64,000 nt of DNA, from positions 159,270 through 223,269 of IMG/VR virus record IMGVR_UViG_3300033074_000580; one strand, written 5' to 3'. The first letter of the stretch is position 1; the number at the start of each line of letters is the position of its first letter. Source of the stretch: a virus (Duplodnaviria; Heunggongvirae; Uroviricota; Caudoviricetes). A program made the translations under genes and the position numbers. The notes under the pieces were generated by a model, which was not told the origin of the DNA, ran no database searches, and saw only the letters and a program-made list of their open reading frames with translations. Positions 1 through 15,360 of the stretch are shown in pieces.

Positions 1-52
1 TGGACTGTCATACAAAGACCACCCCGAGTTACCATCTCCGTCCCTGAAAAGA

Positions 53-65
53 ATTTACTGGATTG
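53..65 (+). promoter_or_regulatory. AATTTACTGGATT upstream element, 11-13 nt 5' of the -33 TTTG
   Basis: the same placement recurs at 5105-5113, 8811-8819 and 10675-10683. Confidence 0.55.
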
Positions 66-74
66 AAAAAAAGA

Positions 75-106
75 TTTGTGTATAACAATTATACTTTGTA
101 CATTTG
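75..106 (+). promoter_or_regulatory. Bacteroidota-type promoter (TTTG -33, TACATTTG -7)
   Basis: TTTG at 75-78, 20-nt spacer, TACATTTG at 99-106. Confidence 0.6.
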
Positions 107-136
107 GTCATTGTTAAACTTTTAAATACTAATGTA

Positions 137-460
137 ATGAACAACGAAACAAAAAGATTGATTGAGAACATTGAGACTACAACCGATGTAAGAAAATTGG
201 AGGTAACTATTTCAATGTTAATGTTCGGTTGGGTAATGGACGACAACAACAAAGAGGACTACGAGAATCTAATTGAAATTTCTCAAAGTCGTTTGAATGT
301 ACTGATGTTACTTCGAGGAGAAGAACACCCACTTCAACATTTAGATTTGGTAAAAGACAAAAAGAAAATCGAGATGTCAGTAATGATGTCAATGATGAAA
401 TCGGTTATTGACCAAGAAGAAAATAAAATGGATTTATCCGATTTCTATTCGATGAACTAA
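137..460 (+). CDS. hypothetical protein (107 aa)
   Basis: ORF 104..460 trimmed to the first ATG (137), which lies downstream of the promoter at 75-106; coding-like composition. Confidence 0.5.
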   Translation: MNNETKRLIENIETTTDVRKLEVTISMLMFGWVMDDNNKEDYENLIEISQSRLNVLMLLRGEEHPLQHLDLVKDKKKIEMSVMMSMMKSVIDQEENKMDLSDFYSMN

Positions 461-545
461 TTCCCCTATAGTAGAAACCGAAAGACCTCAACGAAAGTTG
501 GGGTTTTTTTATGTCCACAGATTTCTCCCTGATCACCTGTACAAC

Positions 546-571
546 TTTACTGGACTACGTACTCCAGTAAA
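546..571. repeat. TTTACTGGA / TCCAGTAAA inverted repeat (8-nt spacer)
   Basis: 546-554 and 563-571. Confidence 0.9.
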
Positions 572-623
572 TTTAAATCTGGATCACCGTGAAAAAAAAG
601 TTTGTTCTGGACCACAAAATAAA

Positions 624-655
624 TTTGTATGGTAATTGTATTAGTGTTATATTTG
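624..655 (+). promoter_or_regulatory. Bacteroidota-type promoter
   Basis: aaataaaTTTGtat ... TATATTTG (648-655); near-identical to the promoters at 1231 and 6838. Confidence 0.65.
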
Positions 656-692
656 GGTATTGAAATTATTACTCACATAAAAACACAATGAA

Positions 693-1052
693 ATGAAAAA
701 CGGAATTTTAATTGATGTACACAATCGTACAATCGAATGGGTTGAGGTTAAGGATTGGAAAGACATTTACACTCACGTTAAGTGTGAACTTTTTGAGTGT
801 GTGGACATTGACGGACAAAATACTGTCTACGTTGATGAAGAAGGACTTTTGACAATGGATTCAAAGTCAATGTTCTTTATGTACAAAGGTTACCCACAAC
901 CTTTATGTGGGAATGGTTTGATTTTAGGAACCGACCACGAGAGTGGGGAAAGTGTTGATTGTTCTCTTTCACTTGAACTTGTTAAATCTAATGTTAGATT
1001 TATGGATATGTTCGAAGTGTCAATGAGAAGTAGATTAGGACAATTTGTATAG
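693..1052 (+). CDS. hypothetical protein (119 aa)
   Basis: ATG ORF following promoter 624-655 and followed by the strong terminator at 1078-1106. Confidence 0.55.
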   Translation: MKNGILIDVHNRTIEWVEVKDWKDIYTHVKCELFECVDIDGQNTVYVDEEGLLTMDSKSMFFMYKGYPQPLCGNGLILGTDHESGESVDCSLSLELVKSNVRFMDMFEVSMRSRLGQFV

Positions 1053-1077
1053 TTCATTTTTAGGTTGATATGTTAAA

Positions 1078-1106
1078 AGGGTGGGATTTTGTCCCACCCT
1101 TTTTTG
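1078..1106 (+). terminator. rho-independent terminator
   Basis: GGTGGGAttttgTCCCACC followed by a T-run. Confidence 0.8.
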
Positions 1107-1135
1107 TATCCAAAAATTTCTGAGGTGATATAAAT

Positions 1136-1167
1136 TTTACTGGAGTTGGTGTCATACATCCAGTAAA
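1136..1167. repeat. TTTACTGGA / TCCAGTAAA inverted repeat
   Basis: 1136-1144 and 1159-1167. Confidence 0.9.
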
Positions 1168-1230
1168 TTTATTCGATGGTTCACCTCCAATCAAGGTGTT
1201 GTCATACAAAGTTCTGGACCGAAAAATAAA

Positions 1231-1262
1231 TTTGTACAAGAATTATATTAGTGTTATATTTG
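1231..1262 (+). promoter_or_regulatory. Bacteroidota-type promoter
   Basis: TTTG 1231-1234, 20-nt spacer, TATATTTG 1255-1262. Confidence 0.65.
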
Positions 1263-1292
1263 TGTATTGTTAAACGACTAAATAAAAATGAA

Positions 1293-1436
1293 ATGAAAGA
1301 AATGTTTGTAACACTAAAAGAACAATGGAACGAAAATCCAAAAGAGATGATTAAAGGAATGTTGTTTATGATTCTTTGGGTTTGTCTTACTTACTTCTTA
1401 TTTTGGTTCGGTAGTATGTTTTGTTATGATATGTAA
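1293..1436 (+). CDS. small hydrophobic protein (47 aa)
   Basis: ORF 1251..1436 trimmed to ATG 1293 downstream of promoter 1231-1262; C-terminal TM-like segment. Confidence 0.4.
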   Translation: MKEMFVTLKEQWNENPKEMIKGMLFMILWVCLTYFLFWFGSMFCYDM

Positions 1437-1566
1437 ATTTTAAACCTATGATAAAAAATCAAGATGGTTCAGTTTTATACGAACCCCACGAAAGACTAAC
1501 TTACTTAGAAAGAATTAAAGACATTCTATTTTTATTATCTATCACACCTAAAATTATTCACACATT

Positions 1567-1791
1567 ATGGAAAAGAAAATAATCAAGTGTAGAATTACAC
1601 CACAACCCAAATCCATATTTGACCCAATCCCACAAATTTTCGTAACTCTCGAAGGTGAGTCTGACGAACAATTTTTACTGGAGTATTATCCTGACGAGAT
1701 TAGTTTCACGGAACAAGAAATTACTGGACTCACGATTAGTGAAGTCAGAACTTTACATTTCCAAAAAGATAAACGATATTTACAATCCTAA
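1567..1791 (+). CDS. hypothetical protein (74 aa)
   Basis: ORF track; co-oriented with the early gene block. Confidence 0.5.
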   Translation: MEKKIIKCRITPQPKSIFDPIPQIFVTLEGESDEQFLLEYYPDEISFTEQEITGLTISEVRTLHFQKDKRYLQS

Positions 1792-1975
1792 ACACATACT
1801 AACTCACAATGAAACAACGTAACATTCTCACAACAAAATTATTAACAATCGACTTTTACTACGAAGGAATTTTCTTTGGAGTAGGTAAGATTGACGACAC
1901 AATCGGAATCATTCTTCCGTTTTTAATTATTGAATTCCACATTCCCCGTAAACCAAAACCTAAAAATTACTTATA

Positions 1976-2194
1976 ATGTTTAACGAAATTTTAGACAAAC
2001 TAAGAGAAGACGTAGGTAAACGTATTCGAATAATCGAAATGAAAGGGGAAGACTTTCAAAGTGGTACCGAAGGAACTATTACCCACATTGACGATATGTG
2101 TAACATTCACGTTCAATGGGACAACGGAAGTACATTGTCCGTAATACCCGATGAAGACCAATACGAAATTCTTGAGAACCCACATGGTAATTAA
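1976..2194 (+). CDS. hypothetical protein (72 aa)
   Basis: ORF track; stop overlaps the TTTACTGGA element at 2196. Confidence 0.5.
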   Translation: MFNEILDKLREDVGKRIRIIEMKGEDFQSGTEGTITHIDDMCNIHVQWDNGSTLSVIPDEDQYEILENPHGN

Positions 2195-2289
2195 CTTTAC
2201 TGGACTTGAAATATGATTTGGTATTACAAGTTTATGGTTATATCTTTGTAAAACAATTTTTTTTATCCACACTTTAAATTTCAAATGAA

Positions 2290-2661
2290 ATGTTAAATTT
2301 AAAATTAACCTATCACGGAAGTGGTAACACCACATTAGTAAACATGGAAAGATTTACTACAATGTATCAAACAATTGACAATCGTAACGGACAACCTTTT
2401 ACGAAGATTCATTTCTCCGAAACCAATTTCTTAATGGTACAAGAAACACCACAAGAAATTGAAGAACTAATGGATTTAATTTCAAACGGAGGTAAACAAG
2501 AAGTGGAATGGAAAGTTCCAACAATTGAAGAAAGGTTTGAACAACAAACATTCCAACCAAGACCACAAAGACAACGAGTTCCATATCAACAAAAACCAAG
2601 ATACACAACTCGTGAAACAAATTATAATAACTTTGATACACCGAACTACAATAGATATTAA
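2290..2661 (+). CDS. hypothetical protein with Q/P/R-rich C-terminus (123 aa)
   Basis: ORF track, ATG start. Confidence 0.5.
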   Translation: MLNLKLTYHGSGNTTLVNMERFTTMYQTIDNRNGQPFTKIHFSETNFLMVQETPQEIEELMDLISNGGKQEVEWKVPTIEERFEQQTFQPRPQRQRVPYQQKPRYTTRETNYNNFDTPNYNRY

Positions 2662-2774
2662 AAGTGTTGTAATACTCTTTTAATGTTATGGGTGGTTAGT
2701 GAGTATTCCCTCATCGTTAATTCGGTGGGGGATTTTTTTGTCAAGAATGTTTCCCTGTAATTCACCTGTTGTAC

Positions 2775-2800
2775 TTTACTGGAGTACATGGTCCAGTAAA
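2775..2800. repeat. TTTACTGGA / TCCAGTAAA inverted repeat
   Basis: 2775-2783 and 2792-2800. Confidence 0.9.
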
Positions 2801-2923
2801 GATTTTCCATCGGGGACCGTATCCAAGAATTTCTCTTATTTAGAATGATTATAAATTTCATTATTTTTGAAAAATAATTAAAATACCTTTGGTAAAATGG
2901 TATCATTGTGTTAATTTTATGGT

Positions 2924-3220
2924 ATGGAATTAACTCACCAAGAGTACTTGACTTTGAAGGAAATCGTAGGGAGATACGAGAAAACTTCTAACAACCCAAA
3001 CGTTTTTTTATCCACAAAGGAACTAAACAAATCCATTTACGACATGGACATTTCAGTTAGATTGTTCCACGTTATGAAAAACGGAATGGGTATCAAAACT
3101 ATCCGTGATATGATTCACTTGTCGGTTCACGACTACACGATTCAACGAAACTTCGGTAAGAGATGTCTTGAAGAACTCAAAGAAATTTACGAAGAACACG
3201 GACTTAAATTTGTAGAGTAG
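2924..3220 (+). CDS. hypothetical protein (98 aa)
   Basis: ORF track; followed by terminator 3241-3278. Confidence 0.5.
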   Translation: MELTHQEYLTLKEIVGRYEKTSNNPNVFLSTKELNKSIYDMDISVRLFHVMKNGMGIKTIRDMIHLSVHDYTIQRNFGKRCLEELKEIYEEHGLKFVE

Positions 3221-3240
3221 TAGTAATCATAACTCGAATT

Positions 3241-3278
3241 AGAATCCCTCAGACTTTTGGTTTGGGGGATTTTTGTTT
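3241..3278 (+). terminator. rho-independent terminator (repeated module)
   Basis: agaatccctcagacttttggtttgggggatttttg; near-identical copy at 5537-5578. Confidence 0.6.
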
Positions 3279-3365
3279 TCTCCTGATCTGATCCTGATCA
3301 GCTCAAAAACTTTACTGGATTATTTTGAAACACAGAAAAAAAAATCTGTGGATCCCTTCATTAAC

Positions 3366-3420
3366 TTTACTGGACTGAAATCAAAATGTTCCACGTGGAA
3401 CGTCTACCCAATCCAGTAAA
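3366..3420. repeat. TTTACTGGA ... GTTCCACGTGGAAC ... TCCAGTAAA composite element
   Basis: motif 3366-3374, perfect 14-bp palindrome 3388-3401, inverse motif 3412-3420. Confidence 0.85.
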
Positions 3421-3545
3421 CATTTTTTCTGATCACCCGGATAAAAAAAGTTTGTTCTGGACAGAAAAATAATTAGGGTAAAATAGTATTGATATGATAT
3501 TGTTTTGTATATTTGTGTATTGTTTAACTCTTAAATGTATTCCAA

Positions 3546-4121
3546 ATGAACACATTAGTAAAAAATGTTATCGAAGTAGATGACAAAGGTTTTGAGAATT
3601 TATTCCTCGATTTAGAAAATCGAAAAACAATTCCGTTTCTTTACATTGGTCGAAAAAGTGATAAACCAAATGAATTGGTTTTGAAGTCCAAAATTGACGG
3701 AAGTAAAAATCCTTATTGGAAAGAAGTAAGTAAGGAAGTTTTTAATTCATTCCGACTTGTAGTAAATTTCAAAGGTCGAGTACACGGAAATTTAGGTAAG
3801 GAAGGAAAACCTACTACCGACTATGAGGAAGGAGAATTGAAAGGTAAGGAACATATTTCCAAATGTCTTTTAACTGATAAAGTAAGTAAGACAAAAAGAT
3901 ATGTTATGTTAGAATACTTTGTTGAAAGTCCTATCAAATCTAAAACTACTTACTTTCATAACGGAAACGAAATTGATAAGAAGTTTTTAGAGAAGTGGAT
4001 TAACTTTGTTGAAACGAAGTATGACAATCAAGGTACTGATAGACCTGTTCGAGTTATTACCTTAGATATTAAGAACATTAACCAAGTAAATGTAGATGGA
4101 GTAATTTACAAACGAGGTTAA
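3546..4121 (+). CDS. hypothetical protein (191 aa)
   Basis: ORF track; preceded by a TAnnTTTG -7 box at 3508-3515 and followed by terminator 4146-4178. Confidence 0.55.
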   Translation: MNTLVKNVIEVDDKGFENLFLDLENRKTIPFLYIGRKSDKPNELVLKSKIDGSKNPYWKEVSKEVFNSFRLVVNFKGRVHGNLGKEGKPTTDYEEGELKGKEHISKCLLTDKVSKTKRYVMLEYFVESPIKSKTTYFHNGNEIDKKFLEKWINFVETKYDNQGTDRPVRVITLDIKNINQVNVDGVIYKRG

Positions 4122-4145
4122 AAATAAAAGTTCCCCCACTTTTGA

Positions 4146-4178
4146 AACCACAACATTTTTGTTGTGGTTTTTTTTGTT
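4146..4178 (+). terminator. rho-independent terminator
   Basis: CCACAACatttttGTTGTGG followed by T8. Confidence 0.75.
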
Positions 4179-4218
4179 GTTATAATTTTTTTTACCGTCT
4201 TGAAGACTGGTCGAAAAC

Positions 4219-4251
4219 TTTACTGGATTAGGGGTATTACATTCCAGTAAA
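4219..4251. repeat. TTTACTGGA / TCCAGTAAA inverted repeat
   Basis: 4219-4227 and 4243-4251. Confidence 0.9.
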
Positions 4252-4314
4252 GTATTACAGTTGGTTCACAGGGACGGTGAAAAAAAAATAAAAATAATTT
4301 ACAATAAAATGTAT

Positions 4315-4340
4315 TTTGTGTTATATTATTTGTATATTTG
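4315..4340 (+). promoter_or_regulatory. probable promoter (-7 TATATTTG; non-canonical -33 spacing)
   Basis: TATATTTG 4333-4340. Confidence 0.35.
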
Positions 4341-4363
4341 TAGACACTAAACACACACTTAAA

Positions 4364-4513
4364 ATGAAAGAAAAACAAGTAAACATTGACGACCTAATTA
4401 AAGTACTCGAAGAACAAGTACAAAAAGGAGTAACTATTGTTTCAATTAAAGGAACACTTAGTTCACCACAAGACGGAAACCTTATTATTTTATCCACCGA
4501 AAAACAAATGTAA
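4364..4513 (+). CDS. small hypothetical protein (49 aa)
   Basis: ORF 4316..4513 trimmed to ATG 4364 downstream of the -7 box at 4333-4340. Confidence 0.4.
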   Translation: MKEKQVNIDDLIKVLEEQVQKGVTIVSIKGTLSSPQDGNLIILSTEKQM

Positions 4514-4514
4514 A

Positions 4515-5078
4515 ATGAAAAAGTACGAATTAGAAATCGAACAAGACACAGATTCAGAAAATCCACGAACAAGTTGGGATAATGTTACCACAATGGTTTG
4601 TTTTCACAAACGATACAATTTAGGTGACAAACACAATTACAAATCCGATAACTTCGATAGTTGGGACGAGATGAAGGAACAAATTTTACTGGATTATAAC
4701 GTCCTAATGATTAAACCTTTGTATCTATTCGACCACTCGGGAATTACAATTTCAACAAAAGACTTTGGGGATAGATGGGATTCAGGAATGATAGGATTCA
4801 TATTCATTGATGAAAAGGAATGGAAAAAAATGATGGGTGAAGATATGGATAGAAGTGAAGAACGTTTACAAAGAATTATCGATGGTGACGTTGAAACTTA
4901 CGATTCATATTTACGAGGTGACGTTTACCGATATGAAGTTTACGAAGTAGAGGAATGTAATTTAGGTCACACACATAAAACCTTTGTTGAAGGTTGTGGA
5001 GGATATTATGATGAAGACGATTGTCGAAGTGAAGGTGAAAGGGTGATAGATTATTTACTGGAGAAAGTCCCTTCTTAA
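4515..5078 (+). CDS. hypothetical protein (187 aa)
   Basis: ORF 4437..5078 trimmed to ATG 4515, which starts 2 nt after the previous stop. Confidence 0.55.
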   Translation: MKKYELEIEQDTDSENPRTSWDNVTTMVCFHKRYNLGDKHNYKSDNFDSWDEMKEQILLDYNVLMIKPLYLFDHSGITISTKDFGDRWDSGMIGFIFIDEKEWKKMMGEDMDRSEERLQRIIDGDVETYDSYLRGDVYRYEVYEVEECNLGHTHKTFVEGCGGYYDEDDCRSEGERVIDYLLEKVPS

Positions 5079-5104
5079 CGGAGGGGACTAACGTCCTGAG
5101 TAAC

Positions 5105-5113
5105 TTTACTGGA
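5105..5113 (+). promoter_or_regulatory. TTTACTGGA upstream element
   Basis: 12 nt 5' of the TTTG at 5126. Confidence 0.5.
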
Positions 5114-5125
5114 TTGTAAATTTAA

Positions 5126-5157
5126 TTTGTATATAAAAGTATTACATTGTATATTTG
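5126..5157 (+). promoter_or_regulatory. Bacteroidota-type promoter
   Basis: TTTG 5126-5129, 20-nt spacer, TATATTTG 5150-5157. Confidence 0.6.
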
Positions 5158-5186
5158 ATTATTGTTTCACCTTAATAATTAACACT

Positions 5187-5513
5187 ATGTTTAATCAAGA
5201 TTTTAAAGACAGAGAAATTGAATTTCAAATGGACGACCTTTCAGACGAGGTTTATTTCGAAGGTTGTGATGAACACACCTTAACGGAAATGTTTATGATA
5301 CAACTATTCGAGAAAATTAAATTGAAAGATTGGTTTATTCAAGGAAATAAAACGGAAGGTATTGTAACCTTTCATTCAGACAACGAACTTACAATTGAAT
5401 GGAAGTCAATTACAATGGGGGACGATTGGGACACGGACGAAGAAGTAGAACATAAACAAGACGTCCTTTTGAATATCGACCCGAGTCAATGGGAAGTTAT
5501 AAATTACAATTAG
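5187..5513 (+). CDS. hypothetical acidic protein (108 aa)
   Basis: ORF 5127..5513 trimmed to ATG 5187 downstream of promoter 5126-5157. Confidence 0.5.
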   Translation: MFNQDFKDREIEFQMDDLSDEVYFEGCDEHTLTEMFMIQLFEKIKLKDWFIQGNKTEGIVTFHSDNELTIEWKSITMGDDWDTDEEVEHKQDVLLNIDPSQWEVINYN

Positions 5514-5536
5514 AATAGTTTAGAGTTAGGAACAGA

Positions 5537-5578
5537 GAATCCCTCAATCTTTTAGGTTGGGGGATTTTTGTTGTATTA
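5537..5578 (+). terminator. rho-independent terminator (repeated module)
   Basis: gagaatccctcaatcttttaggttgggggatttttg. Confidence 0.6.
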
Positions 5579-5605
5579 CGGATCTGATCTGATCAGGGTG
5601 AAAAC

Positions 5606-5636
5606 TTTACTGGATTGATTGTAATACTCCAGTAAA
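5606..5636. repeat. TTTACTGGA / TCCAGTAAA inverted repeat (13-nt spacer containing GTAATAC)
   Basis: 5606-5614 and 5628-5636; same spacer form as 9688-9718. Confidence 0.9.
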
Positions 5637-5770
5637 CTATTTCAGGTGATCCACGGGGATCATCAGGAAAAAATAATTTAAAATAAATTGAATTCTTTTA
5701 AAAAAAGATTTGGATAATATCTAAAATAGATTTACATTTGTTCATTCATTCACCATAAAACATATACGAT

Positions 5771-6616: not shown

Positions 6617-6641
6617 AATCCAATTGGTTAGGTTAAGGGGA

Positions 6642-6669
6642 ACCCTCGTAGTAATACGGGGGTTTTTTA
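6642..6669 (+). terminator. rho-independent terminator
   Basis: ACCCTCGTAgtaaTACGGGGGT followed by T6. Confidence 0.7.
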
Positions 6670-8641: not shown

Positions 8642-8726
8642 TGTTTTAGTGGGTTAAACAATAGGAAGGGTGGACAGAAATGTTCACCTTTTTTTATTCC
8701 CCGAACTGTGCCGGCGACGGGAAAAC

Positions 8727-8748
8727 TTTACTGGATTGGTCCAGTATA
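8727..8748. repeat. TTTACTGGA-TTGG-TCCAGTAtA inverted repeat (one mismatch)
   Basis: 8727-8735 and 8740-8748. Confidence 0.8.
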
Positions 8749-8755
8749 CTTTACA

Positions 8756-8803
8756 CAGCGCATGCGCAGCATGATCTGCGAATTTGCGCAGCCTGATCTG
8801 CTG
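8756..8803. repeat. GC-rich GATC-containing repeat (GCGCAGC[A/C]TGATCTGC, twice)
   Basis: the 18-mer GCGCAGCCTGATCTGCTG at 8786-8803 is identical to 9730-9747. Confidence 0.85.
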
Positions 8804-8810
8804 TAAATAA

Positions 8811-8819
8811 TTTACTGGA
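8811..8819 (+). promoter_or_regulatory. TTTACTGGA upstream element
   Basis: 13 nt 5' of the TTTG at 8833. Confidence 0.45.
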
Positions 8820-8884
8820 TTGAAAATATTATTTTGTTATAATCATTTTATTGTTTTATCTTTACACAACTAAAACACACATAT

Positions 8885-9643
8885 ATGGAAATGAAATTCA
8901 CAACCGTGGCGGAAGCCAAACGATTAACAGGTTTATCCTATCTCGCTAAATGTAACCACACAGCGAAACACAAAAAGGCATATAAGTACGATGAACTTGT
9001 GTATAGCCTTTATTTAGCTCCCGCGAAAATGTCTGGTTACGAAGTTTGTCCGATGAGAAATAAACATTGTACGAACTTATGTCTAAATGAATCAGGTCAC
9101 AACCGAATCGATATCCACGAAAATAAAATTAACCAATCGCGAATAACTAAAACTAAATTGTTTTTTGAGAACAGACAGTTTTTTATGGAGTGGATGATTT
9201 ATGAAATTAACTTTTATAAAAACAAAGCTAAAAAGTTAGGATATAACTTTAGTGTAAGATTAAACAATACGTCTGATTTATCCCCTGAATCATTTTATGT
9301 TGATATCGACGGAACAAAGAAAAATATATTACAATTGTTTCCCGATGTTCAATTCTACGATTACACAAAAGTTTTCAAAAGAACTGATTTAGTTAAAAAG
9401 TATAAAAATTACGATTTAACTTTTTCCTATAGTGGTACAAATATGGATGAATGTGTTCAGGCAATGGATAAGAAAATTAGAGTAGCCGTAGTATTCGAGG
9501 GTCTACCTACTACATTTTGGAATCGGAAAGTTGTCGACGGTGACAAGTACGATATGAGGTATTACGACCGAAAGAATATAATAGTCGGACTTAAGTTTAA
9601 GAAAGTCAGAAAGAAATTAGTAAAGAACCCCTTCGTAGTGTAG
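8885..9643 (+). CDS. hypothetical Cys/His-containing protein (252 aa)
   Basis: ORF track; slightly GC-richer codons than neighbouring genes; flanked by ~110-bp direct repeats. Confidence 0.55.
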   Translation: MEMKFTTVAEAKRLTGLSYLAKCNHTAKHKKAYKYDELVYSLYLAPAKMSGYEVCPMRNKHCTNLCLNESGHNRIDIHENKINQSRITKTKLFFENRQFFMEWMIYEINFYKNKAKKLGYNFSVRLNNTSDLSPESFYVDIDGTKKNILQLFPDVQFYDYTKVFKRTDLVKKYKNYDLTFSYSGTNMDECVQAMDKKIRVAVVFEGLPTTFWNRKVVDGDKYDMRYYDRKNIIVGLKFKKVRKKLVKNPFVV

Positions 9644-9653
9644 GGGTTTTTTA
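9626..9653 (+). terminator. rho-independent terminator
   Basis: AACCCCTtcgtagtgtAGGGGTT followed by a T-run; overlaps the 3' end of the gene. Confidence 0.7.
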
Positions 9654-9687
9654 TTGTGCACTGTATCTGCACAGCAACAGTAAAAAC

Positions 9688-9718
9688 TTTACTGGATTAA
9701 ATGTAATACTCCAGTAAA
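9688..9718. repeat. TTTACTGGA / TCCAGTAAA inverted repeat
   Basis: 9688-9696 and 9710-9718. Confidence 0.9.
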
Positions 9719-9727
9719 CTTTTTGAC

Positions 9728-9765
9728 ATGCGCAGCCTGATCTGCTGCAGATCATTCGCAGATCA
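9728..9765. repeat. GC-rich GATC-containing repeat, second copy
   Basis: GCGCAGCCTGATCTGCTG at 9730-9747, followed by GCAGATCAT twice. Confidence 0.85.
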
Positions 9766-9874
9766 TCTGTAAAGAATTTACTGGATTAAAAATAATTTAA
9801 AAAATTATTATCGTAATACTTGTACGGAATTAAAATTATACCTATCTTTGGTCTTCACTAAAACAATACACATT

Positions 9875-10303
9875 ATGGGAACTCGCTCAACTTATCGAAT
9901 TATCGAACAATTTACCGATAAAGGTAAAGTCGTAAATCAGGAAATCTGTTTAGTGTATCGTCAATTCGACGGATACCCAACAGGTCATCCAATGGAAACC
10001 GCTGAATGGTTGGCATCTGGCACAGTTGTAAATGGTTATTCTAATACGGATAATTTACAATTCAACGGAGCTGGTTGTTTAGCCGCACAACTTGTTGCGA
10101 AATATAAAGATGGTGTTGGTGGAACTTACATTCAATCTTTGAAATCTCGCGGAAACTCTTGGGAAGATTATCTTTATGACATTATTGTAAAAGAAGATAA
10201 AACTATTGAATATGTGTGCTATGAGAATGGGGTTCGTAAGAAAGAATTATTTCGTGGAACTCCACAGGACTTCGTAGAGAAATTTGAAAAACAAGAAGCG
10301 TAA
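9875..10303 (+). CDS. hypothetical protein (142 aa)
   Basis: ORF 9848..10303 (TTG start) trimmed to ATG 9875. Confidence 0.5.
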   Translation: MGTRSTYRIIEQFTDKGKVVNQEICLVYRQFDGYPTGHPMETAEWLASGTVVNGYSNTDNLQFNGAGCLAAQLVAKYKDGVGGTYIQSLKSRGNSWEDYLYDIIVKEDKTIEYVCYENGVRKKELFRGTPQDFVEKFEKQEA

Positions 10304-10674
10304 TGAAAAAACATCAAGTTAGATTCAATCTCGGAAAGGGAGAGAATTATATGAAGTGGAAAATAACTTACAACGACGGCAGGGTGGAATATCACCATCC
10401 TGCTGAAGTTCAGTTACTATTACACGATTGCACATTAAAGAACAACAGAAAGGCTGCACAGAGAATCTTTACTGGAGAGAGTACCAAAGTAGTTTGTGCT
10501 TATGTTCTTTGTAAGGGAATTGAAATCTTAACTGAAGATTTTATTCCTGAAACTTCCGCACATTTAAAATACAATCCTCGTGTGTTTCCATTTTGGAACT
10601 TGGATGGGATGAATGTGGATGGGAACGAATACAAAGAATTATTTTCTGTACACAGCAAGCTCTATCTAAAATAA
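10303..10674 (+). CDS. hypothetical protein (123 aa)
   Basis: ATGA stop/start overlap with the upstream gene. Confidence 0.5.
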   Translation: MKKHQVRFNLGKGENYMKWKITYNDGRVEYHHPAEVQLLLHDCTLKNNRKAAQRIFTGESTKVVCAYVLCKGIEILTEDFIPETSAHLKYNPRVFPFWNLDGMNVDGNEYKELFSVHSKLYLK

Positions 10675-10683
10675 TTTACTGGA
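10675..10683 (+). promoter_or_regulatory. TTTACTGGA upstream element
   Basis: 12 nt 5' of the TTTG at 10696. Confidence 0.5.
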
Positions 10684-10695
10684 TTGAAAAATAAG

Positions 10696-10727
10696 TTTGT
10701 TAAAATTAAATTATTGTAATACATTTG
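10696..10727 (+). promoter_or_regulatory. Bacteroidota-type promoter
   Basis: TTTG 10696-10699, 20-nt spacer, TACATTTG 10720-10727. Confidence 0.6.
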
Positions 10728-10781
10728 TACATCATTAACTCACAAACTCGTGGACAGGAGATAAACTGAACAACACTCACT

Positions 10782-11333
10782 ATGGGATTAGATATGTATC
10801 TCTCAAAGAAAACCTATGTTAAAAGATGGGGTTACGAAAAACCCGAAGAAGCATTTAATGTCACAATCCAAAAAAATGGGGTGACATATCCTCACATCAA
10901 GTCCGAACGAATTTCCTACATCACGGAAGAAATTATGTACTGGAGAAAAGCAAATCAAATTCACGGATGGATTTGTTCCAATGGTCAAGTAATCACGGAA
11001 GATGTTAGATACATTTTGGAAGGTGAACAAATTGTTGAGTTGCTTGAAACTTGTAAGAAAGTTCTTGAACTTATCAACACATCAACTAAATCGACTACAC
11101 AGGTTGTGGGTGGTTGGAGAAATGGTGAAGAATATAAAGTTGATGTTGATGTGTATGACAACACAGATGAGATTATGGAGTTACTTCCACCAACACAGGG
11201 ATTTTTCTTTGGTTCATCAATTATTGATGATTGGTATAAAGAACAAATCGAGGAAACTATTAAAGTGTTAGAAGAAGAAATCAATTCTAATACGGATAAT
11301 TATCCCGAATACGAATACTACGCTTCGTGGTAA
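10782..11333 (+). CDS. hypothetical protein (183 aa)
   Basis: ORF track; promoter 10696-10727 upstream and terminator 11345-11385 downstream. Confidence 0.5.
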   Translation: MGLDMYLSKKTYVKRWGYEKPEEAFNVTIQKNGVTYPHIKSERISYITEEIMYWRKANQIHGWICSNGQVITEDVRYILEGEQIVELLETCKKVLELINTSTKSTTQVVGGWRNGEEYKVDVDVYDNTDEIMELLPPTQGFFFGSSIIDDWYKEQIEETIKVLEEEINSNTDNYPEYEYYASW

Positions 11334-11344
11334 AATAAAATAAT

Positions 11345-11385
11345 GGGGATATTGTTAGGAATAATGATATCCCCTTTATATCTTT
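11345..11385 (+). terminator. probable terminator
   Basis: GGGGATAT...ATATCCCC stem with a U-rich tail. Confidence 0.5.
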
Positions 11386-11409
11386 GTTCAACATTTAAAC
11401 ACACAGACT

Positions 11410-12093
11410 ATGCCAAATTGGTGCAACAACTACATTGAGATTTCAGGTTCTAAGGAGAATATGAAACCCATCTACGATTACTTCAACGAAGGACAGAAAG
11501 TAATCGACAAGTATTACGAGGATGTTAAGAAGTACAGAGAAGAAAATCCTGACGCAACTGATTTAGGAGTTAGTTGGGAGGAGAATCTTGTTATGAATAC
11601 TTTAGTTCCACACGACGAGGAATACGACCGAATTAAAGAGTCAGGAGATTTCTTACTTAATCCTCAAACAAGATTTTATGGAACTAAATGGGACTTCGAC
11701 CTAAGGGAAGCAAATCTAAATCAGGTGGAAGAAACTTTAATCACATTAGCCCCATCAACAGCTTGGTCACCTCCATCCGAGTTCTGTCAAAGATTGACCA
11801 AGAAATATAATGTACACGTTAATCTTACATATGAGGAAGGTGGTGTAGGTTTTGTGGGTCAGGAAGAATTTGAGGGTGGTGAGATGATTGGACAGGTAAT
11901 CTACGAAGATTACTACGAAGGTCTTTACAATTTGGATAAAGAAACCTTTTGGAGTATGGTGGATTATGAATGTGATGATGTGGATGAAGACACCACAGAG
12001 GAGGAGTTTCTTGAGAAGTTCAATTCCTATGTGTCCGAAGAAGATTTGGAAAAGATTAAAGAATACTATCACGAATATAAAATAGAGTCGTAA
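11410..12093 (+). CDS. hypothetical protein, possibly DUF1281-like (N-terminal MPNWCNN motif)
   Basis: 227 aa; the family assignment is recalled from the N-terminal motif only. Confidence 0.45.
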   Translation: MPNWCNNYIEISGSKENMKPIYDYFNEGQKVIDKYYEDVKKYREENPDATDLGVSWEENLVMNTLVPHDEEYDRIKESGDFLLNPQTRFYGTKWDFDLREANLNQVEETLITLAPSTAWSPPSEFCQRLTKKYNVHVNLTYEEGGVGFVGQEEFEGGEMIGQVIYEDYYEGLYNLDKETFWSMVDYECDDVDEDTTEEEFLEKFNSYVSEEDLEKIKEYYHEYKIES

Positions 12094-12350
12094 TGGAAAA
12101 GAAGTTAAAAGTTAAATACAGCACATTTGTTAGCCCACTCTCATATAATGAGTGGGCACAACAATACAAGGTTTCAAGTTTATATACGGAGAGTACTCCA
12201 TATTATCAGGGAAACCTTACCCATCAGGAGCCAAACCAAAAATCCAGTTTATATCAGTCGATTGAGGATTTGTTCCCGAGAAGACCACTATTAAAATCAA
12301 TCATTCAAAAATTTAAAACAAAGAAAAGATGCCAAGAGAAAACAAACTAA
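12093..12350 (+). CDS. hypothetical protein (85 aa)
   Basis: ORF track; ATGA overlap with the upstream gene. Confidence 0.4.
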   Translation: MEKKLKVKYSTFVSPLSYNEWAQQYKVSSLYTESTPYYQGNLTHQEPNQKSSLYQSIEDLFPRRPLLKSIIQKFKTKKRCQEKTN

Positions 12351-12799
12351 CAGAAGGAGTGTTTACTGGAATAGTAGGGACTCGAGAAAGAATCAGTTCA
12401 TATGACCTATTCTTAGAAACGATGACCAAGAAGAATTCACCTGAATTATCTAAGTGGAGCAAGAAGTATCGTGACCACATCAATAAGAATAAGGTGAAGT
12501 TCCAAAACTTAGCCAAACTTGAGGAGGTGATAATGCAGCTCAGGAGTAAAGAAACTTTACTGGAGAACATCAAACTGTCACTCGTTCGTGAATACATCTA
12601 CGCAAGAGCATTGTTCTACCGTGAGGGTAAAGGGACAAAAGACATTCGTGTTATCGTCGACAAGACTGATATCTACGGTGAGGACCTTAATGTTCTTCTT
12701 AAGAATAAGGAATTTATGTCCAAAGCTGTAACCAAACTACAGGCTGCAATGGATAAAGAAATTGCTGAGAATGTGAGGACCATTGAAAATATATTCTAG
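12329..12799 (+). CDS. hypothetical protein (156 aa)
   Basis: ORF track. Confidence 0.5.
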   Translation: MPRENKLTEGVFTGIVGTRERISSYDLFLETMTKKNSPELSKWSKKYRDHINKNKVKFQNLAKLEEVIMQLRSKETLLENIKLSLVREYIYARALFYREGKGTKDIRVIVDKTDIYGEDLNVLLKNKEFMSKAVTKLQAAMDKEIAENVRTIENIF

Positions 12800-12851
12800 A
12801 ATTATTTGGAATATTCGAACGAAGTGTTAACTTTACTAAAAATTCACACAT

Positions 12852-13178
12852 ATGAACTACACAGAACAAATCAATCAATTGAGGGATAAGATGCATAAGG
12901 ACATCATCCACTCAGTTCAAAGAGCTCATTCGGTTATGGATGAGTTTGATGTCGAGTTACTTAATCCATTCTCCATTTGGGTAACCGAAGGGTTTGAGGA
13001 TGAGTATCAGGTTAATATTGCGGTTATGGGTGTATCAGGTATTACAGGTGATTTAATCACACGAGGTATTACAGAGGATGCATATTGTGATATTAACTAT
13101 AGTGACCTTACATTGGAGCAACTTGCATATCTCCACAGACAAATTGAAACACAACAATTCACCATAAACATAATATAA
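12852..13178 (+). CDS. hypothetical protein (108 aa)
   Basis: ORF track. Confidence 0.45.
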   Translation: MNYTEQINQLRDKMHKDIIHSVQRAHSVMDEFDVELLNPFSIWVTEGFEDEYQVNIAVMGVSGITGDLITRGITEDAYCDINYSDLTLEQLAYLHRQIETQQFTINII

Positions 13179-13179
13179 A

Positions 13180-13725
13180 ATGAAAACGATTCAATTAACT
13201 GAAGAAGTAATGGTATCCGACCCTTGTTACACGGTGCCAACCTGGTGTCAACATAAGCTCACAGGTGTATTACCAGGGGAGTATGTAACGAATGTTATGA
13301 AATCCGACGAGGGTGCTTGGGGACACAGGATAGGATTATTGGTGGCGGTCCATAAGGATTATGTCCACGATGATTTATCTTGGAGGGTAGTATCTGCGGC
13401 AGATATCGGGGTCGACTCGGGTCAGGCTGGCATCTTTGCAATGGACACATACAGAAAGGACAGCGTCTTCCAAGAACCAAACAACTTTGGTTTCTCCCAA
13501 GTTGCTGAGGGTGATCATTGGTACGGCCATATGTGTGATAGGACCTTAAGTGATGAGCAATGGGGAACTTACAGCCACGGGGTTGTTTCTTCCACAGGTT
13601 ACGGGGATGGTTCCTATAGATTATGTGTGGCAAAACACAATGGGAAGATTGTCGGGATTGGTATTGATTACTTGGGATATAAGAACTATGCGTTCAACCT
13701 GGTGATAGATAAAGAGTTGGTATAG
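13180..13725 (+). CDS. hypothetical protein (181 aa), GC-richer codon usage
   Basis: ORF track; compositionally distinct from the AT-rich upstream genes. Confidence 0.5.
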   Translation: MKTIQLTEEVMVSDPCYTVPTWCQHKLTGVLPGEYVTNVMKSDEGAWGHRIGLLVAVHKDYVHDDLSWRVVSAADIGVDSGQAGIFAMDTYRKDSVFQEPNNFGFSQVAEGDHWYGHMCDRTLSDEQWGTYSHGVVSSTGYGDGSYRLCVAKHNGKIVGIGIDYLGYKNYAFNLVIDKELV

Positions 13726-13784
13726 TTAAACAATATGAAGACGGGGGAGTTATTCCCCTATCTTTGTATATTAAATAAACAGAT

Positions 13785-13976
13785 ATGACAACAATTAGAA
13801 CACAGGTGATTCCAACCAAGAAAGGTTATGAAGTTTGGTACTCCTTAGATGGAGGACAATCAATGGAGCTTCATAGTGTCCACAAGACAATGGACAGTGC
13901 GGTGAAGGAAACGGTGAGCCTCAAGGGCCACTATACTTTACTGGAGAAGATTACACGTAAATTCACAAACCTCTAA
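13785..13976 (+). CDS. hypothetical protein (63 aa)
   Basis: ORF track. Confidence 0.4.
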   Translation: MTTIRTQVIPTKKGYEVWYSLDGGQSMELHSVHKTMDSAVKETVSLKGHYTLLEKITRKFTNL

Positions 13977-13989
13977 ATAACGATTAACT

Positions 13990-14127
13990 ATGAAAAAGTT
14001 CCTCAAGAAGGTAGAGTACATATGGGACATCTACTTCGTCTACTTCCTTTACAACGGCAATAAGACCGACCGTTATTATGCTTACCTCAGGAAGAAGTAC
14101 CCCGAAATGTTTACTGGAGAGAAGTAA
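13990..14127 (+). CDS. small hypothetical protein (45 aa)
   Basis: manually read ATG ORF (MKKFLKKVEYIWD...), too short for the ORF track. Confidence 0.3.
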   Translation: MKKFLKKVEYIWDIYFVYFLYNGNKTDRYYAYLRKKYPEMFTGEK

Positions 14128-14257
14128 TCTCCCCGTGATCACCCGGTGATCAGGACTCCGAAGTTTACTGGATTAGGGGACATGTAAAAATATTTTGCCG
14201 GCAGATTTTTTATTGTGGATATTATTTACTATATTTTAGTATAAAATAATAAAACAC

Positions 14258-14440
14258 ATGAAAAAACAATCATCAACACGCCGTCAGACTGTAACCACTT
14301 ATGTTCCTGTATCTGACAACATCTACCACGACGGTTCATCATACCGTGTACGTGTTAGTATCAACGGTAAGAAGTACTCTAAGAACTTCTCTAACAAACG
14401 TAAAGCGGTTTCATTCCGTAACGAATTGTTAGGTCGATAG
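14258..14440 (+). CDS. AP2/integrase-arm-like DNA-binding domain protein (60 aa)
   Basis: 'YRVRVSINGKKYSKNFSNKRKAVSFRNEL' resembles AP2/integrase DNA-binding folds; codons of the cgt/ggt/aac/tac type. Confidence 0.45.
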   Translation: MKKQSSTRRQTVTTYVPVSDNIYHDGSSYRVRVSINGKKYSKNFSNKRKAVSFRNELLGR

Positions 14441-15360
14441 TAAGTACTACTTCCAATAAGACTTCGGGGTCTCCTACAGTTGCTCATGTTAGCTGTACGG
14501 GGACCCTTCTTATTTGTACATGTCAGAGATATTCCTTACCTTGTTCTTAGGGAGGAAGAAGGTCCACAAACTTTACTGGATTAACTGATTACGGGACTCC
14601 CCTTCGGGTCGTCCCTTCATCCCGTGGTGAAGGTTCCACGTGGAACGTGGGTATTACACCATACATGTGGGACTGTATGACAGGGGTATATATTGTACTA
14701 TTCTAAGTCCCCGTCGAAAATTCCCTAAGGGTTTTTCTAAAAACCATATAACTATTCTAAGATTCAGGGATGTATTACCATCCTGAAGGGAGGACTCGTA
14801 GAGTCCGACCGACTCAATCACTTCTTTTGTGGACTTAATCCAGTAAACTATGTAATACATATAACCCATTATACGGGGGTCCTAACGGACCCCCTTCATC
14901 CCGTACAGTTGCCAGACAATATCACAATATTATGACCATAGTGTATTACCCATATTTGTCTGGCAAGAATTACGGGGACTCTGTCGAGTCCCCTTCAGGG
15001 GGGTTAGGACCTATAATGTATGACACGTTATATGGTATAATATGTATTACATAATACTATAATATAAACGGGATGAAGGACCGACCGAAACGAAGTGTAG
15101 GGAGGTCCGTATTACACTAAAATGGTTATATTCTGGTACCGGAAATAAAATGGGTCGTGATTCACGCAAGGGTCAATCCCGTAATACATTCCTAGCCCGT
15201 GGGGAAAAGTGGGAATTTGTGGATTGTAATACTGGTATCCCAAATTTTAGATAAAAAAAGATAATTTAGTATATATTTTTCGATCACGATAAAAGTGTCA
15301 GAAAAAAGTACAGGTTTTTGTACTAAAAACAGGAAAAAATTCGGTCTAATTTTAGGGGGA
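14441..15360. other. ORF-free, GC-rich, hairpin-dense repeat array at the convergent junction (candidate structured ncRNA cluster, or replication origin / iteron region)
   Basis: repeated modules: CCCTTCATCCCGT at 14613 and 14892, with the reverse-orientation copy at 15068 carrying one mismatch; TACAGTTGC twice; TACGGG(G)NYYC three times; UUCG/UUCA-looped GC stems; about eight GTAATAC/GTATTAC sites; AT-rich core 15036-15066. Confidence 0.5.
14633..14646. repeat. second copy of the perfect palindrome GTTCCACGTGGAAC
   Basis: identical to 3388-3401. Confidence 0.85.

Follow-up and report, generated by a model that had tools for sequence, protein, structure and literature searches.

Sequence definition of the early-module word

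The window, that is, the whole 64-kb stretch of DNA that was analysed, comes from an uncultured Bacteroidota phage, and its start falls inside an early plus-strand module in which the 9-mer TTTACTGGA is strongly over-represented. It holds 37 exact copies (28 on the plus and 9 on the minus strand), whereas 100 dinucleotide-preserving shuffles of the window averaged 0.99 copies and never exceeded 5. All copies lie within 54..14847 and none in the 15–64 kb remainder, as an earlier note had judged by eye; its claim that the word is enriched and polar holds, and the positions it listed were correct apart from the first copy, which starts at 54 and not 55. A metagenome contig (L232/L250, 99.96% identical) adds 4.2 kb to the left of the window, and no copy was found in 3.5 kb of this flanking DNA; the first copy stands about 250 nt ahead of the first plus-strand gene. 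Plus copies follow one another every 0.2–1.7 kb, with a coefficient of variation of 0.56 overall and 0.33 in the first 6 kb. All nine minus copies and 19 plus copies are intergenic, the nine genic copies are all plus, and outside close inverted pairs 20 plus copies stand against 1 minus copy.

The word is very sharply delimited. One-mismatch forms number 5 in 1–15 kb against the 37 exact copies, which is the background rate. The earlier note had the word usually extended to the 16-mer AAAACTTTACTGGATT, but this is exact in few copies only; what is invariant in the flanks is A at -2 and T at +2 (19 of 19 intergenic plus copies), so the intergenic site in practice reads A-N-TTTACTGGA-N-T. The DNA around individual copies is mutually unrelated, which, together with the background level of one-mismatch forms, argues for selection on TTTACTGGA itself and not on a duplicated block.

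Promoter phasing and inverted pairs

Promoters of the early module are Bacteroidetes-type (TTTG-N19-20-TAnnTTTG, plus strand), and belong to the host sigma-A class, and the module has more terminators than expected (22 versus 8.5). It thus consists of successive cassettes transcribed by the host. At the simple promoters a single plus copy ends exactly 12 nt 5′ of the -33 TTTG: 54..62 (promoter 75-106), 2196..2204 (1 nt past a stop codon; promoter 2217-2248), 5105..5113 (promoter 5126-5157) and 10675..10683 (abutting a stop codon; promoter 10696-10727), while at 8811..8819, ahead of gene 8885-9643, the distance is about 13 nt. An A-rich tract fills the interval at simple promoters. The single-copy arrangement described in the earlier note is therefore real and extends to 2196. 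Its comparison to an UP-element or activator/operator position also gains weight: exactly 12 nt separate the end of CTGGA from the -33 TTTG at 7 promoters of the window and at 10 in L232, and roughly half of the plus copies in L239 and L240, whose word differs, lie 10–14 nt ahead of a TTTG. This phasing could partly stem from common descent of promoter cassettes. Further promoters of the same type lie at 5709-5740 and 7989-8019.

Other single intergenic plus copies are found at 3311..3319 (3′ of a GATC triplet, 3285-3299), 6707..6715 (exact match), 9777..9785 (ahead of gene 9875-10303, exactly where nucleotide homology to L238 begins) and 14164..14172 (3′ of the GATC pair 14137/14148 and 5′ of the last plus gene, 14258-14440). 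A one-mismatch plus-strand form, TATACTGGA at 7371..7379, abuts the start codon at 7380, and the equivalent site of L238 has the exact word.

The arms of the eight exact inverted pairs are separated by 4 (6761..6782, exact match), 8 (546..571, TTTACTGGA-N8-TCCAGTAAA, in a terminator-promoter gap with GATC at 531 and 582), 8 (2775..2800, an exact match that the terminator scan also picked, as 2774-2801), 13 (5606..5636, between GATC clusters 5581-5594 and 5648-5661), 13 (9688..9718, GTAATAC in the loop), 14 (1136..1167, GTCATAC in the loop), 15 (4219..4251, GTATTAC in the loop) and 37 nt (3366..3420, palindrome TTCCACGTGGAA in the loop). One more pair is imperfect (TTTACTGGA-N4-TCCAGTATA, 8727..8748, with a mismatched right arm at 8740), and one is distant (AAACTTTACTGGATTAA ... 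TTAATCCAGTAAACT, 14572..14847), its arms at 14572 and 14839 spanning 258 nt of a 1-kb convergent non-coding region and forming the last copies in the window. The placement of pairs between terminator and promoter was rightly noted before, but the spacers reach 37 nt and so exceed the range of 4–15 nt then given.

The weak proximal site goes together with a perfect pair. The form TTCTGGA occupies the proximal slot only where such a pair is present in the terminator-promoter gap, another 30–75 nt upstream: GTTCTGGA lies on the plus strand 12 nt 5′ of the -33 element at 604..611 (promoter 624-655), 1211..1218 (promoter 1231-1262) and 6818..6825 (promoter 6838-6869), and at 3454..3461 it precedes the promoter of gene 3546-4121. 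This proximal form is common to lineages whose strong words differ (GTTCTGGAC in the window, AATTCTGGAAA in L239). GATC clusters flank the inverted pairs, those besides the ones given above being at 3351, 3431, 6743, 6796, 8773, 8795, 9739-9764 and 14137-14151; clustered sites make up 21 of the 24 GATC in the window. Like TTTACTGGA, the GATC clusters and GTATTAC are limited to the early module.

The earlier note took the pairs as hairpins. As single-stranded DNA their stabilities are weak (-5.7 to -9.5 kcal/mol), the right arm is TCCAGTATA in two lineages (L242 and L244), a mismatch without compensation, and in an orthologous spacer the arm spacing varies from 13 to 39 nt among lineages. Hairpin formation is not required; the TCCAGTATA right arms and arm spacings of 4–39 nt favour independently bound half-sites over a base-paired stem.

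Genic copies and conservation among relatives

The nine genic plus copies encode L-L-E/D in six cases and F-T-G in three. L-L-E is found at 1674..1682 (gene 1567-1791, in a multi-gene operon without spacers), 5054..5062 (gene 4515-5078, stop 16 nt on), 7957..7965 (stop 46 nt on, and 23 nt 5′ of the -33-like TTGG of promoter 7989-8019), 12556..12564 (gene 12329-12799; kept in L238, L242 and L244) and 13937..13945 (gene 13785-13976, stop 31 nt on), and L-L-D at 4685..4693 (gene 4515-5078). F-T-G is encoded at 10468..10476 (gene 10303-10674; synonymous sites kept in L238 and L244), 12362..12370 (gene 12329-12799; kept in L238, L242 and L244) and 14110..14118 (gene 13990-14127, stop 9 nt on; kept in L242 and L244). 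That genic copies are all plus, six of them encoding L-L-E/D, agrees with the earlier note, which counted eight and overlooked 12362. For the five copies alignable to orthologs in other TTTACTGGA lineages, 13 of 13 codons are kept at synonymous sites versus 39.6% elsewhere, whereas L239 has synonymous alternatives at the 12362 site. Three of these five sit in the middle of a gene and have no promoter 3′ of them. A promoter-only model fails to predict this synonymous constraint and the plus polarity of genic copies.

Among four strains of 98.6–99.2% identity, variation was seen at 1 of 396 TTTACTGGA positions, while other intergenic DNA varies by 2.07% and genes by 1.66%, showing purifying selection on the word. 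Related uncultured phages have the same architecture, spacer by spacer, with different words (AAAACTGGAA, TTTACTGGG, TTGTTTGGCA, GTTAATCGGCAA). In the spacer 5′ of the DUF932 gene, the order terminator, GATC, inverted pair, GATC and promoter is kept in nine lineages, and both arms change together to the lineage's own word; the layout of 5606..5636 is kept with other words in the orthologous spacer of 8 relatives. The earlier note had looked to homologous intergenic regions of relatives for the motif; what is present in every relative examined is the architecture, while the word itself differs between lineages. Joint switching of both arms and of many sites in each lineage is expected if a reader co-evolves with its sites.

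A proposed lineage-specific binding site and its alternatives

Our leading interpretation, which we hold tentatively, is that TTTACTGGA is a lineage-specific, promoter-coupled binding site for a probably phage-encoded DNA-binding protein controlling the early module. The putative reader would act on host-RNA-polymerase promoters across an early (host-takeover or anti-defence) module of about 17 kb. At simple promoters it would occupy the one perfect forward word ending 12 nt 5′ of the -33 TTTG; in complex spacers it would meet the weak proximal TTCTGGA and the perfect pair 30–75 nt upstream with GATC clusters on either side, an arrangement which suggests that strong distal sites help load the weak proximal site. 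We infer that a protein reads the word, is encoded by the phage and contacts RNA polymerase. We lean slightly to shut-off or modulation of early transcription over activation, because the core promoters are already near consensus. Counting against the reading, proteins made after infection cannot be needed in the first round of early transcription.

A Pfam search of 37 early proteins gave no HTH and no other recognised regulator domain, and only two candidates for DNA binding emerged among them, a stand-alone alpha-CTD-like protein and a small AP2/arm-type-like protein. The latter (60 aa) is too invariant to track word changes. The former is in L240 and absent from the ~21 kb of L239 examined, though these two share the word, which counts against it as reader.

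It is unlikely that TTTACTGGA instead serves as promoter for an RNA polymerase that the phage encodes and possibly delivers with its virion. Jumbo and T7-like phages have a highly conserved phage-specific motif of ~10 nt before early operons, also in genes and always co-directional with transcription. According to a review, each RNAP-encoding jumbo phage has its own conserved motif of ~10 nt 5′ of early operons (PMC7598289). The plus polarity, genic copies in spacer-less operons, the sharp word and its lineage-specific replacement would fit, and the family reaches large contig sizes, with homologs of two window proteins encoded on ones of 265 and 324 kb. However, in nearly all spacers the word is followed, at a constant distance, by host-type -33/-7 elements close to consensus, the nine reverse copies, which are conserved, would drive antisense transcription into the terminators upstream of them, a conserved weak variant stands in the word's slot when a pair lies upstream, and the core CTGG is not AT-rich. 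Of the 49 window ORFs that encode 150 aa or more, 48 were searched and no RNAP-like gene was found among them; about 260 kb of the genome lies outside the window.

Rather unlikely, too, is an orientation-dependent tracking or address signal of the early module, read at a required density, like Chi, KOPS/SRS, or injection or translocation signals, with a secondary link to promoters. This would account for the strict polarity (20:1 among unpaired copies, 9 of 9 genic copies), the synonymous constraint, the genic copies that keep plus words every 0.2–1.7 kb through spacer-less operons, and the exact end of the signal at both module borders. It predicts neither the exact 12-nt phase nor the weak-proximal/strong-distal grammar, and conservation extends to the nine reverse copies. 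At 13 positions, the intergenic consensus is longer than any known Chi, and, unless the hosts differ, differing words in syntenic early modules speak against a signal defined by the host. By the Chi orientation rule of RecBCD biology, the module of the 265-kb scaffold, which points away from the near end, is wrongly oriented for protection there.

We consider it quite improbable that the elements are mobile or recombinogenic terminator-promoter cassettes, with TTTACTGGA as a homology patch for swapping and the words set by concerted evolution, similar to PeSLs of T4-type phages, which are described as composite terminator/promoter motifs that mediate indels (PMC4122927). Composite terminator-palindrome-promoter repeats do surround small, poorly conserved ORFs, the early module, compared between lineages, is a mosaic of gene cassettes interspersed with conserved anchor genes, and several edges of the window/L238 nucleotide-homology blocks fall at a word (9777, 10675, 7371), although homology blocks would tend to break off in spacers in any case, given the faster divergence of non-coding DNA. 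That the word serves primarily as a hotspot of recombination or shuffling, one proposal of the earlier note, is not supported: strains of 98.6–99.2% identity are collinear, five contigs of closely related strains show no cassette indels, and the sole resolved cassette-scale rearrangement, a fusion leading to gene 7380-7754, used microhomology in coding sequence and not the word. Moreover, an identity island of 9–13 bp set in otherwise unrelated flanks falls short of the length that homologous recombination needs and does not resemble conversion tracts, and neither the synonymous constraint of genic copies nor the phasing to -33 is accounted for.

Very unlikely is a role in RNA, as an endoribonuclease target (compare GGAG, target of T4 RegB), a nut/put-like antitermination hairpin or a second terminator: unpaired copies are all in sense orientation, genic copies are constrained, T-rich tracts follow inverted pairs, one of which the terminator scan flagged (2774-2801), and both arms co-vary between lineages, but the word lies 5′ of the promoter and 3′ of the previous GC-rich terminator and would be missing from most monocistronic RNAs, the mismatch in L242 and L244 is uncompensated, the stems are weak, and an Rfam search gave no match.

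Returning to a promoter-coupled binding site, the use of a different word in each lineage suggests a phage-specific DNA-binding regulator. In terms of position, the single word ahead of the -33 element corresponds to the distal UP subsite of E. coli RNA polymerase and to a class I activator site.

Distribution, phasing and constraint of the word

The 64-kb window contains 37 copies of the word TTTACTGGA, 28 on the plus strand and nine on the minus strand, all of them between positions 54 and 14847, within the early-gene block of the plus strand (the early module, about 17 kb) inside which the window begins. Dinucleotide-preserving shuffles gave a mean of 0.99 copies and a maximum of 5, so the over-representation of the 9-mer claimed in the earlier note was borne out. 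The coordinates listed there were also right, except that the first copy lies at 54 and not at 55, and that a ninth copy inside a gene, at 12362, had been overlooked. No copy was found in the remaining 49 kb of the window or in 3.5 kb of left flank. Intergenic copies comprise 19 on the plus strand and all nine on the minus strand; genic copies are all on the plus strand (9/9), six of them encoding L-L-E/D and three F-T-G. Outside close inverted pairs, in which the word is combined with its reverse complement, 20 copies are on the plus and one on the minus strand. Mismatched variants of the word are not tolerated: between 1 and 15 kb, 37 exact copies stand against five one-mismatch copies, and the one-mismatch rate equals that of the rest of the window. 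Intergenic plus copies are always flanked by A at -2 and by T at +2 (19/19), with C at -1 in 12 and T at +1 in 14 of the 19.

Promoters of Bacteroidetes follow the consensus TTTG-N19-20-TAnnTTTG, and those of the early module are of this -33/-7 type; a scan for E. coli-type sigma-70 promoters showed no enrichment (62 vs 59.8 expected). Intrinsic terminators are enriched (22 vs 8.5 expected). When promoters were aligned, (TTTA or nGTT)CTGGA was found to end exactly 12 nt before the -33 TTTG in seven of eight strong promoters, with an A-rich tract between the two elements, and the full module contains 10 cases of this 12-nt phasing. Simple promoters carry a perfect plus-strand word in this proximal slot, at 54, 2196, 5105 and 10675 (12 nt) and at 8811 (about 13 nt). 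Complex spacers are 230-325 nt long and begin with a stop codon, a GC-rich terminator and then about 35 nt often holding TGATC repeats; a perfect inverted pair of the word and further GATC sites occupy the middle, and a weak GTTCTGGA(C/A) in the slot near -53, followed by the promoter, closes the spacer. Loops of the inverted pairs often contain GTAATAC, GTATTAC or GTCATAC. Every spacer of 90 nt or more (14 in all) carries the word; terminators and promoters share spacers, and four spacer families (D1-D4) are repeated.

Among four strain contigs with 98.6-99.2% identity, only one of 396 word positions is variable, compared with 2.07% of other intergenic DNA and 1.66% of genes; at the intergenic rate, about eight variants would be expected within the word. 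Orthologs from the four lineages having this word in common agree at all 13 codons that overlap genic copies, but at only 82 of 207 (39.6%) other degenerate codons whose amino acid is invariant (p ~6e-6). A lineage with a different word keeps the F-T-G residues via TTC ACA GGG in one gene and TTC ACT GGT in another. Given the identity of these codons, genic copies are functional as nucleic acid, and synonymous-site constraint on polar genic copies points beyond classical operators.

Related early modules and companion motifs

With the DUF932 protein and a 60-aa protein as entry points, syntenic early modules were found in viral and metagenome collections, and every recovered relative has its own over-represented, plus-biased word. 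Besides the window, TTTACTGGA is used by contigs L238, L242 and L244, the last two with TCCAGTATA as reverse partner instead of the exact complement. The other contigs use TTTACTGGG / ATTACTGGGG (L246), ATAAAACTGGAAAT (L239 and L240, with 25 plus and 10 minus copies in L239), ATTGTTTGGCAAA (L229-231 and L249), GTTAATCGGCAA (L248), TGCGAAACAA (L247) or TGCATACCAA (L241). In L239 and L240, about half of the plus copies sit 10-14 nt before a -33 TTTG, and complex spacers carry AATTCTGGAAA in the proximal slot, with the same weak core as in the window.

In the spacer upstream of the DUF932 gene, the order terminator, GATC, inverted pair, GATC, promoter is kept in nine lineages, and both arms of the pair switch to the local word, with arm spacings of 13-39 nt. 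As the layout is kept and the arms are replaced, the architecture is conserved and the word exchanged. The earlier note had tied its motif to persistence in homologous spacers of relatives; the architecture persists there, and the word itself is swapped. Co-evolution of a protein recognising the word (the reader) with its sites would yield such a combination, and a variable word on a constant architecture provides a setting for mapping specificity determinants by covariation.

One relative is located in a Bacteroidota MAG. In the isolated-phage collection, nothing matched the DNA of the early region, whether closely or distantly, and neither a 715-aa protein nor the 60-aa protein had a match; the GP88-like protein matched distant isolated phages only. 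A full-text literature search for the word returned primers only, and exact-pattern scans of IMG/VR with a 14-mer and a 9+9 palindrome returned single chance matches only. Four IMG/VR contigs with 10-24 copies of the 9-mer (L179, L216, L187 and L197) were rejected as relatives; the 9-mer is abundant in them because it encodes F-T-G in collagen-like G-x-x repeats (G-F-T-G-S). Such repeats are a trap when the word is counted across databases.

Two further motifs accompany the word. GATC is nine-fold depleted in the window (24 vs 217 +/- 15 expected), and 21 of the 24 sites lie in early-module spacers beside the word, mostly as TGATC repeats, with clusters at 531-585, 3285-3299, 5581-5661, 8773-8798, 9739-9764 and 14137-14151. 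In relatives, too, GATC is clustered in the early module and scarce or absent in the flanks (0 in 8.9 kb for L242 and L244, five for L246, nine for L247). This pattern suggests restriction avoidance together with a retained function, possibly a methylation-dependent one. GTATTAC and GTAATAC (20 and 11 copies) are found in genes and spacers between 2141 and 15232, genic copies being mostly on the plus strand, and are absent from the other 48.8 kb of the window, where about eight would be expected. They are enriched and plus-biased in the early module of every relative, whatever its main word, and constitute a second, family-wide word. GTCATAC behaves similarly beside the main word.

A perfect palindrome, TTCCACGTGGAA, occurs at 3389-3400, between the arms of the 3366/3420 inverted pair, and at 14634-14645, in a convergent non-coding region (0 expected); it is also present in L242, in L244 and in contig L232, at about 1070-1085 and 1232-1245. 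Three minus-strand promoters at 22800-28270 (28269, 23659 and 22801) share TTTGGAATATTC at and just after the -33 element, which suggests a second promoter class with an associated word.

Module borders, gene content and candidate readers

About 31 small plus-strand genes fill positions 1-14440 of the window and end at a 1-kb convergent non-coding junction, from which minus-strand genes extend up to 59 kb. The left border is seen in the metagenome contig L232/L250 (JGI 3300033072), which is 99.96% identical to the window and adds 4.2 kb on the left: the early module begins there at a divergent junction, with the first word about 250 nt before the first plus-strand gene, and the next 3.5 kb leftward contain no word, no GATC and no GTATTAC. 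Within the convergent region itself (14441-15499), GC-rich hairpins ending in CCCTTCATCCCGT / CCCTTCAGGG are repeated; GTATTAC/GTAATAC is present eight times, and the last word pair, a distant one, also lies here. Sequence right after the word at 14572 is near-identical in L244, and its features are found in L242 in diverged form. No Rfam or tRNA match was obtained for 14441-15499, which could be an origin, a terminus or a set of non-coding RNA genes.

Among the domains of early proteins are DUF932, DUF3846, DUF4314, GP88 and Api92-like/DUF1281_C; searches of 37 early proteins against Pfam yielded neither an HTH nor any other recognised regulator domain. At 7380-7754, a 124-aa gene is a fusion whose N-terminal 75 and C-terminal 40 residues correspond to two separate genes of L238 (1891-3369), divided there by a 1-kb three-gene insert that opens with a word and a promoter; the fusion junction in the window falls at a V-E-V microhomology. 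Elsewhere, the window has genes for thymidylate synthase, three DNA methyltransferases, glycosyltransferases, a radical-SAM protein and lysis enzymes, among others. A radical-SAM/B12-type protein, a thymidylate-synthase homolog, several glycosyltransferases, a sulfotransferase and a nucleotidyltransferase are encoded at 35353-37500 (minus), 52967-54013 (minus) and 59510-63593 (plus), a gene set that might function in hypermodification of DNA or remodelling of surface glycans.

Database records place a protein with 100% identity to the 3546-4121 product on a contig of about 324 kb; contigs of 265 and 324 kb carry homologs of the last early gene. With homologs on contigs of this size, the phage is probably a jumbo phage; the phages with such words form an uncultured family of Bacteroidota phages, also probably of jumbo size.

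Three early proteins were considered as readers. The plus-strand gene at 2924-3220 encodes a 98-aa protein homologous to the C-terminal domain of RNA polymerase alpha (PF03118, E 1.3e-11) and consisting of this domain alone; judged by eye, it retains counterparts of the DNA-contact residues R265, G296 and K298. It is present in L240 and was not detected in L239 or L231. It was rejected as the reader, being missing from the ~21 kb of L239 examined and present in L240, which has the same word. A free mimic of this domain in the early region could compete for UP elements or activators. The last early gene (14258-14440, plus strand) encodes the very basic 60-aa protein, with more than 190 homologs (67-100% identity) on contigs up to 324 kb. 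Its AlphaFold model (pLDDT 84) shows a beta-sheet and a helix, nearest to integrase arm-type/AP2 DNA-binding domains in weak matches (E 0.25-0.7). Identity of 67-100% across lineages with unrelated words led to its rejection as a lineage-specific reader; it is a better candidate for reading a family-wide word such as GTATTAC. For the conserved 191-aa protein (3546-4121), the model (pLDDT 76) had no fold match and PDB sequence searches were empty.

Readings of the word and comparison with known systems

The most economical reading is that the word is bound by a putative lineage-specific, sequence-specific DNA-binding protein. Each monomer would bind one asymmetric word and act on the host RNA polymerase from about -53, and weak proximal sites would be aided by the strong inverted sites upstream. 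A model of this kind leaves the strict plus polarity and the constraint in mid-gene unexplained, and two rivals therefore stay alive.

According to the first, the word is a promoter for a phage RNA polymerase, as in jumbo phages with virion RNA polymerases, where a conserved motif of about 10 nt that differs from phage to phage precedes early operons (PMC7598289). The word is likewise a conserved, phage-specific motif of about that length upstream of early operons, and it resembles these promoters and the T7/T3/SP6 classes in being co-directional and in having some copies within genes. In contrast to virion polymerase promoters, which are AT-rich, are centred near -10 of the transcription start and need no host-type promoter, the present word has CTGG in its core and is followed, 12 nt downstream, by a full host-type -33/-7 promoter, and reverse copies and weak proximal variants occur. 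Jumbo phages with such promoters encode multisubunit RNA polymerases of both virion and non-virion type; no RNA polymerase genes were found among 48 searched ORFs of at least 150 aa in the window, which covers 64 kb of a genome of likely 265-324 kb.

According to the second, the word is a polar DNA-tracking signal. Chi and KOPS are short, strand-polar genomic words, and the present word resembles them as a short, exact, polar word in coding DNA under nucleotide-level selection. Unlike them, it is limited to one 17-kb module, promoter-phased, paired in inverted orientation and lineage-specific. Chi is defined by the host and enriched genome-wide as well as in the host, whereas the present word differs between syntenic phages and has 0 copies in 49 kb of window and 3.5 kb of flank.

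The word is not mainly an RNA target, because most single-gene transcription units lack it in their RNA, and Rfam and tRNA scans of the early region found nothing. The hairpin described in the earlier note did not hold up as a required feature: arms carry uncompensated mismatches, loop length is variable, and the stems, at -5.7 to -9.5 kcal/mol for single-stranded DNA, are weak. The two arms change in concert from lineage to lineage, yet L242 and L244 keep TTTACTGGA/TCCAGTATA with an uncompensated mismatch. The recombination or shuffling hotspot also proposed there was not shown, since strains at 98.6-99.2% identity are collinear, no word-bounded indels separate close strains (what look like 100-nt differences are N runs within scaffolds), and the one resolved rearrangement (7380-7754) joined at coding microhomology.

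A wider proposal, which we consider unlikely, is that the word is a lineage-specific address read orientation-dependently at promoters and in genes by a co-evolving phage factor and that, with GATC clusters and GTATTAC purged elsewhere, it labels the 17-kb block for an undescribed directional process; timed silencing, selective protection and staged DNA entry would be candidates. If this were true, the word would exceed a set of ordinary operators. To our knowledge, almost nothing is known about transcription scheduling in Bacteroidota phages, notably large uncultured freshwater ones, and we know of no description of an exact promoter-phased word, a weak-proximal/strong-distal grammar, constrained polar genic copies and word exchange in one family of uncultured large phages. 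The word near -53, the weak-proximal/strong-distal arrangement and the GATC clusters form a compact, testable regulatory grammar. If the reader were found, orthogonal promoter/regulator pairs for Bacteroidota genetics would become available, and the on/off switching of a block of probable anti-defence genes would be revealed.

Upstream sites at about -50 to -60 include the distal UP subsite of E. coli and the sites of P2 Ogr and P4 Delta (centred near -55) and of phi29 p4; each of the phage sites serves a phage protein that contacts the alpha subunit of RNA polymerase. Assuming that Bacteroidetes RNA polymerase has a geometry like that of E. coli, the word resembles these sites in its fixed position, which precedes the -35-equivalent by about two helical turns and is separated from it by an A-rich tract. 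Its position is also that of UP elements (about -40 to -60, directly upstream of the -35-equivalent). The word is not an ordinary UP element, however: UP elements are A/T-rich and loosely read by the host alpha-CTD, and should therefore be alike in phages with similar hosts, whereas the word is exact, contains G/C and is swapped for unrelated words in syntenic relatives. It differs from upstream activator sites in being asymmetric, used as a monomer-type site and changed between close lineages.

Operators of P1 C1 are scattered over the genome, single or paired, and those of Aca repressors lie at anti-CRISPR promoters. The word resembles both in its many dispersed sites, single or in inverted pairs, at strong early/anti-defence promoters. 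Unlike these operators, it lies upstream of the core promoter without overlapping it, and the module yielded no HTH regulator gene; the known operators show no genic polarity.

PeSLs (promoter-early stem-loops) are composite terminator/promoter cassettes of T4-type phages (Arbiol 2010, PMC2839356; Comeau 2014, PMC4122927). Like PeSLs, the present spacers are small cassettes of phage-specific sequence that recur among small, variable early ORFs of a plastic region, each with a terminator stem-loop directly before an early promoter. Unlike PeSLs, they carry an extra, sharply defined word of 9-13 nt, apart from the terminator and phased to -33, which is doubled as an inverted pair, strictly polar, and under synonymous constraint in genes. 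Indel junctions within cassettes between close relatives, a feature of PeSLs, and word-mediated indels were not seen here, and the promoters are of the Bacteroidetes -33/-7 type. The PeSL cassette (PMC4122927) is the closest described architecture, and the closest functional analogues are phage activator/operator sites near -55 and phage-specific early promoter motifs.
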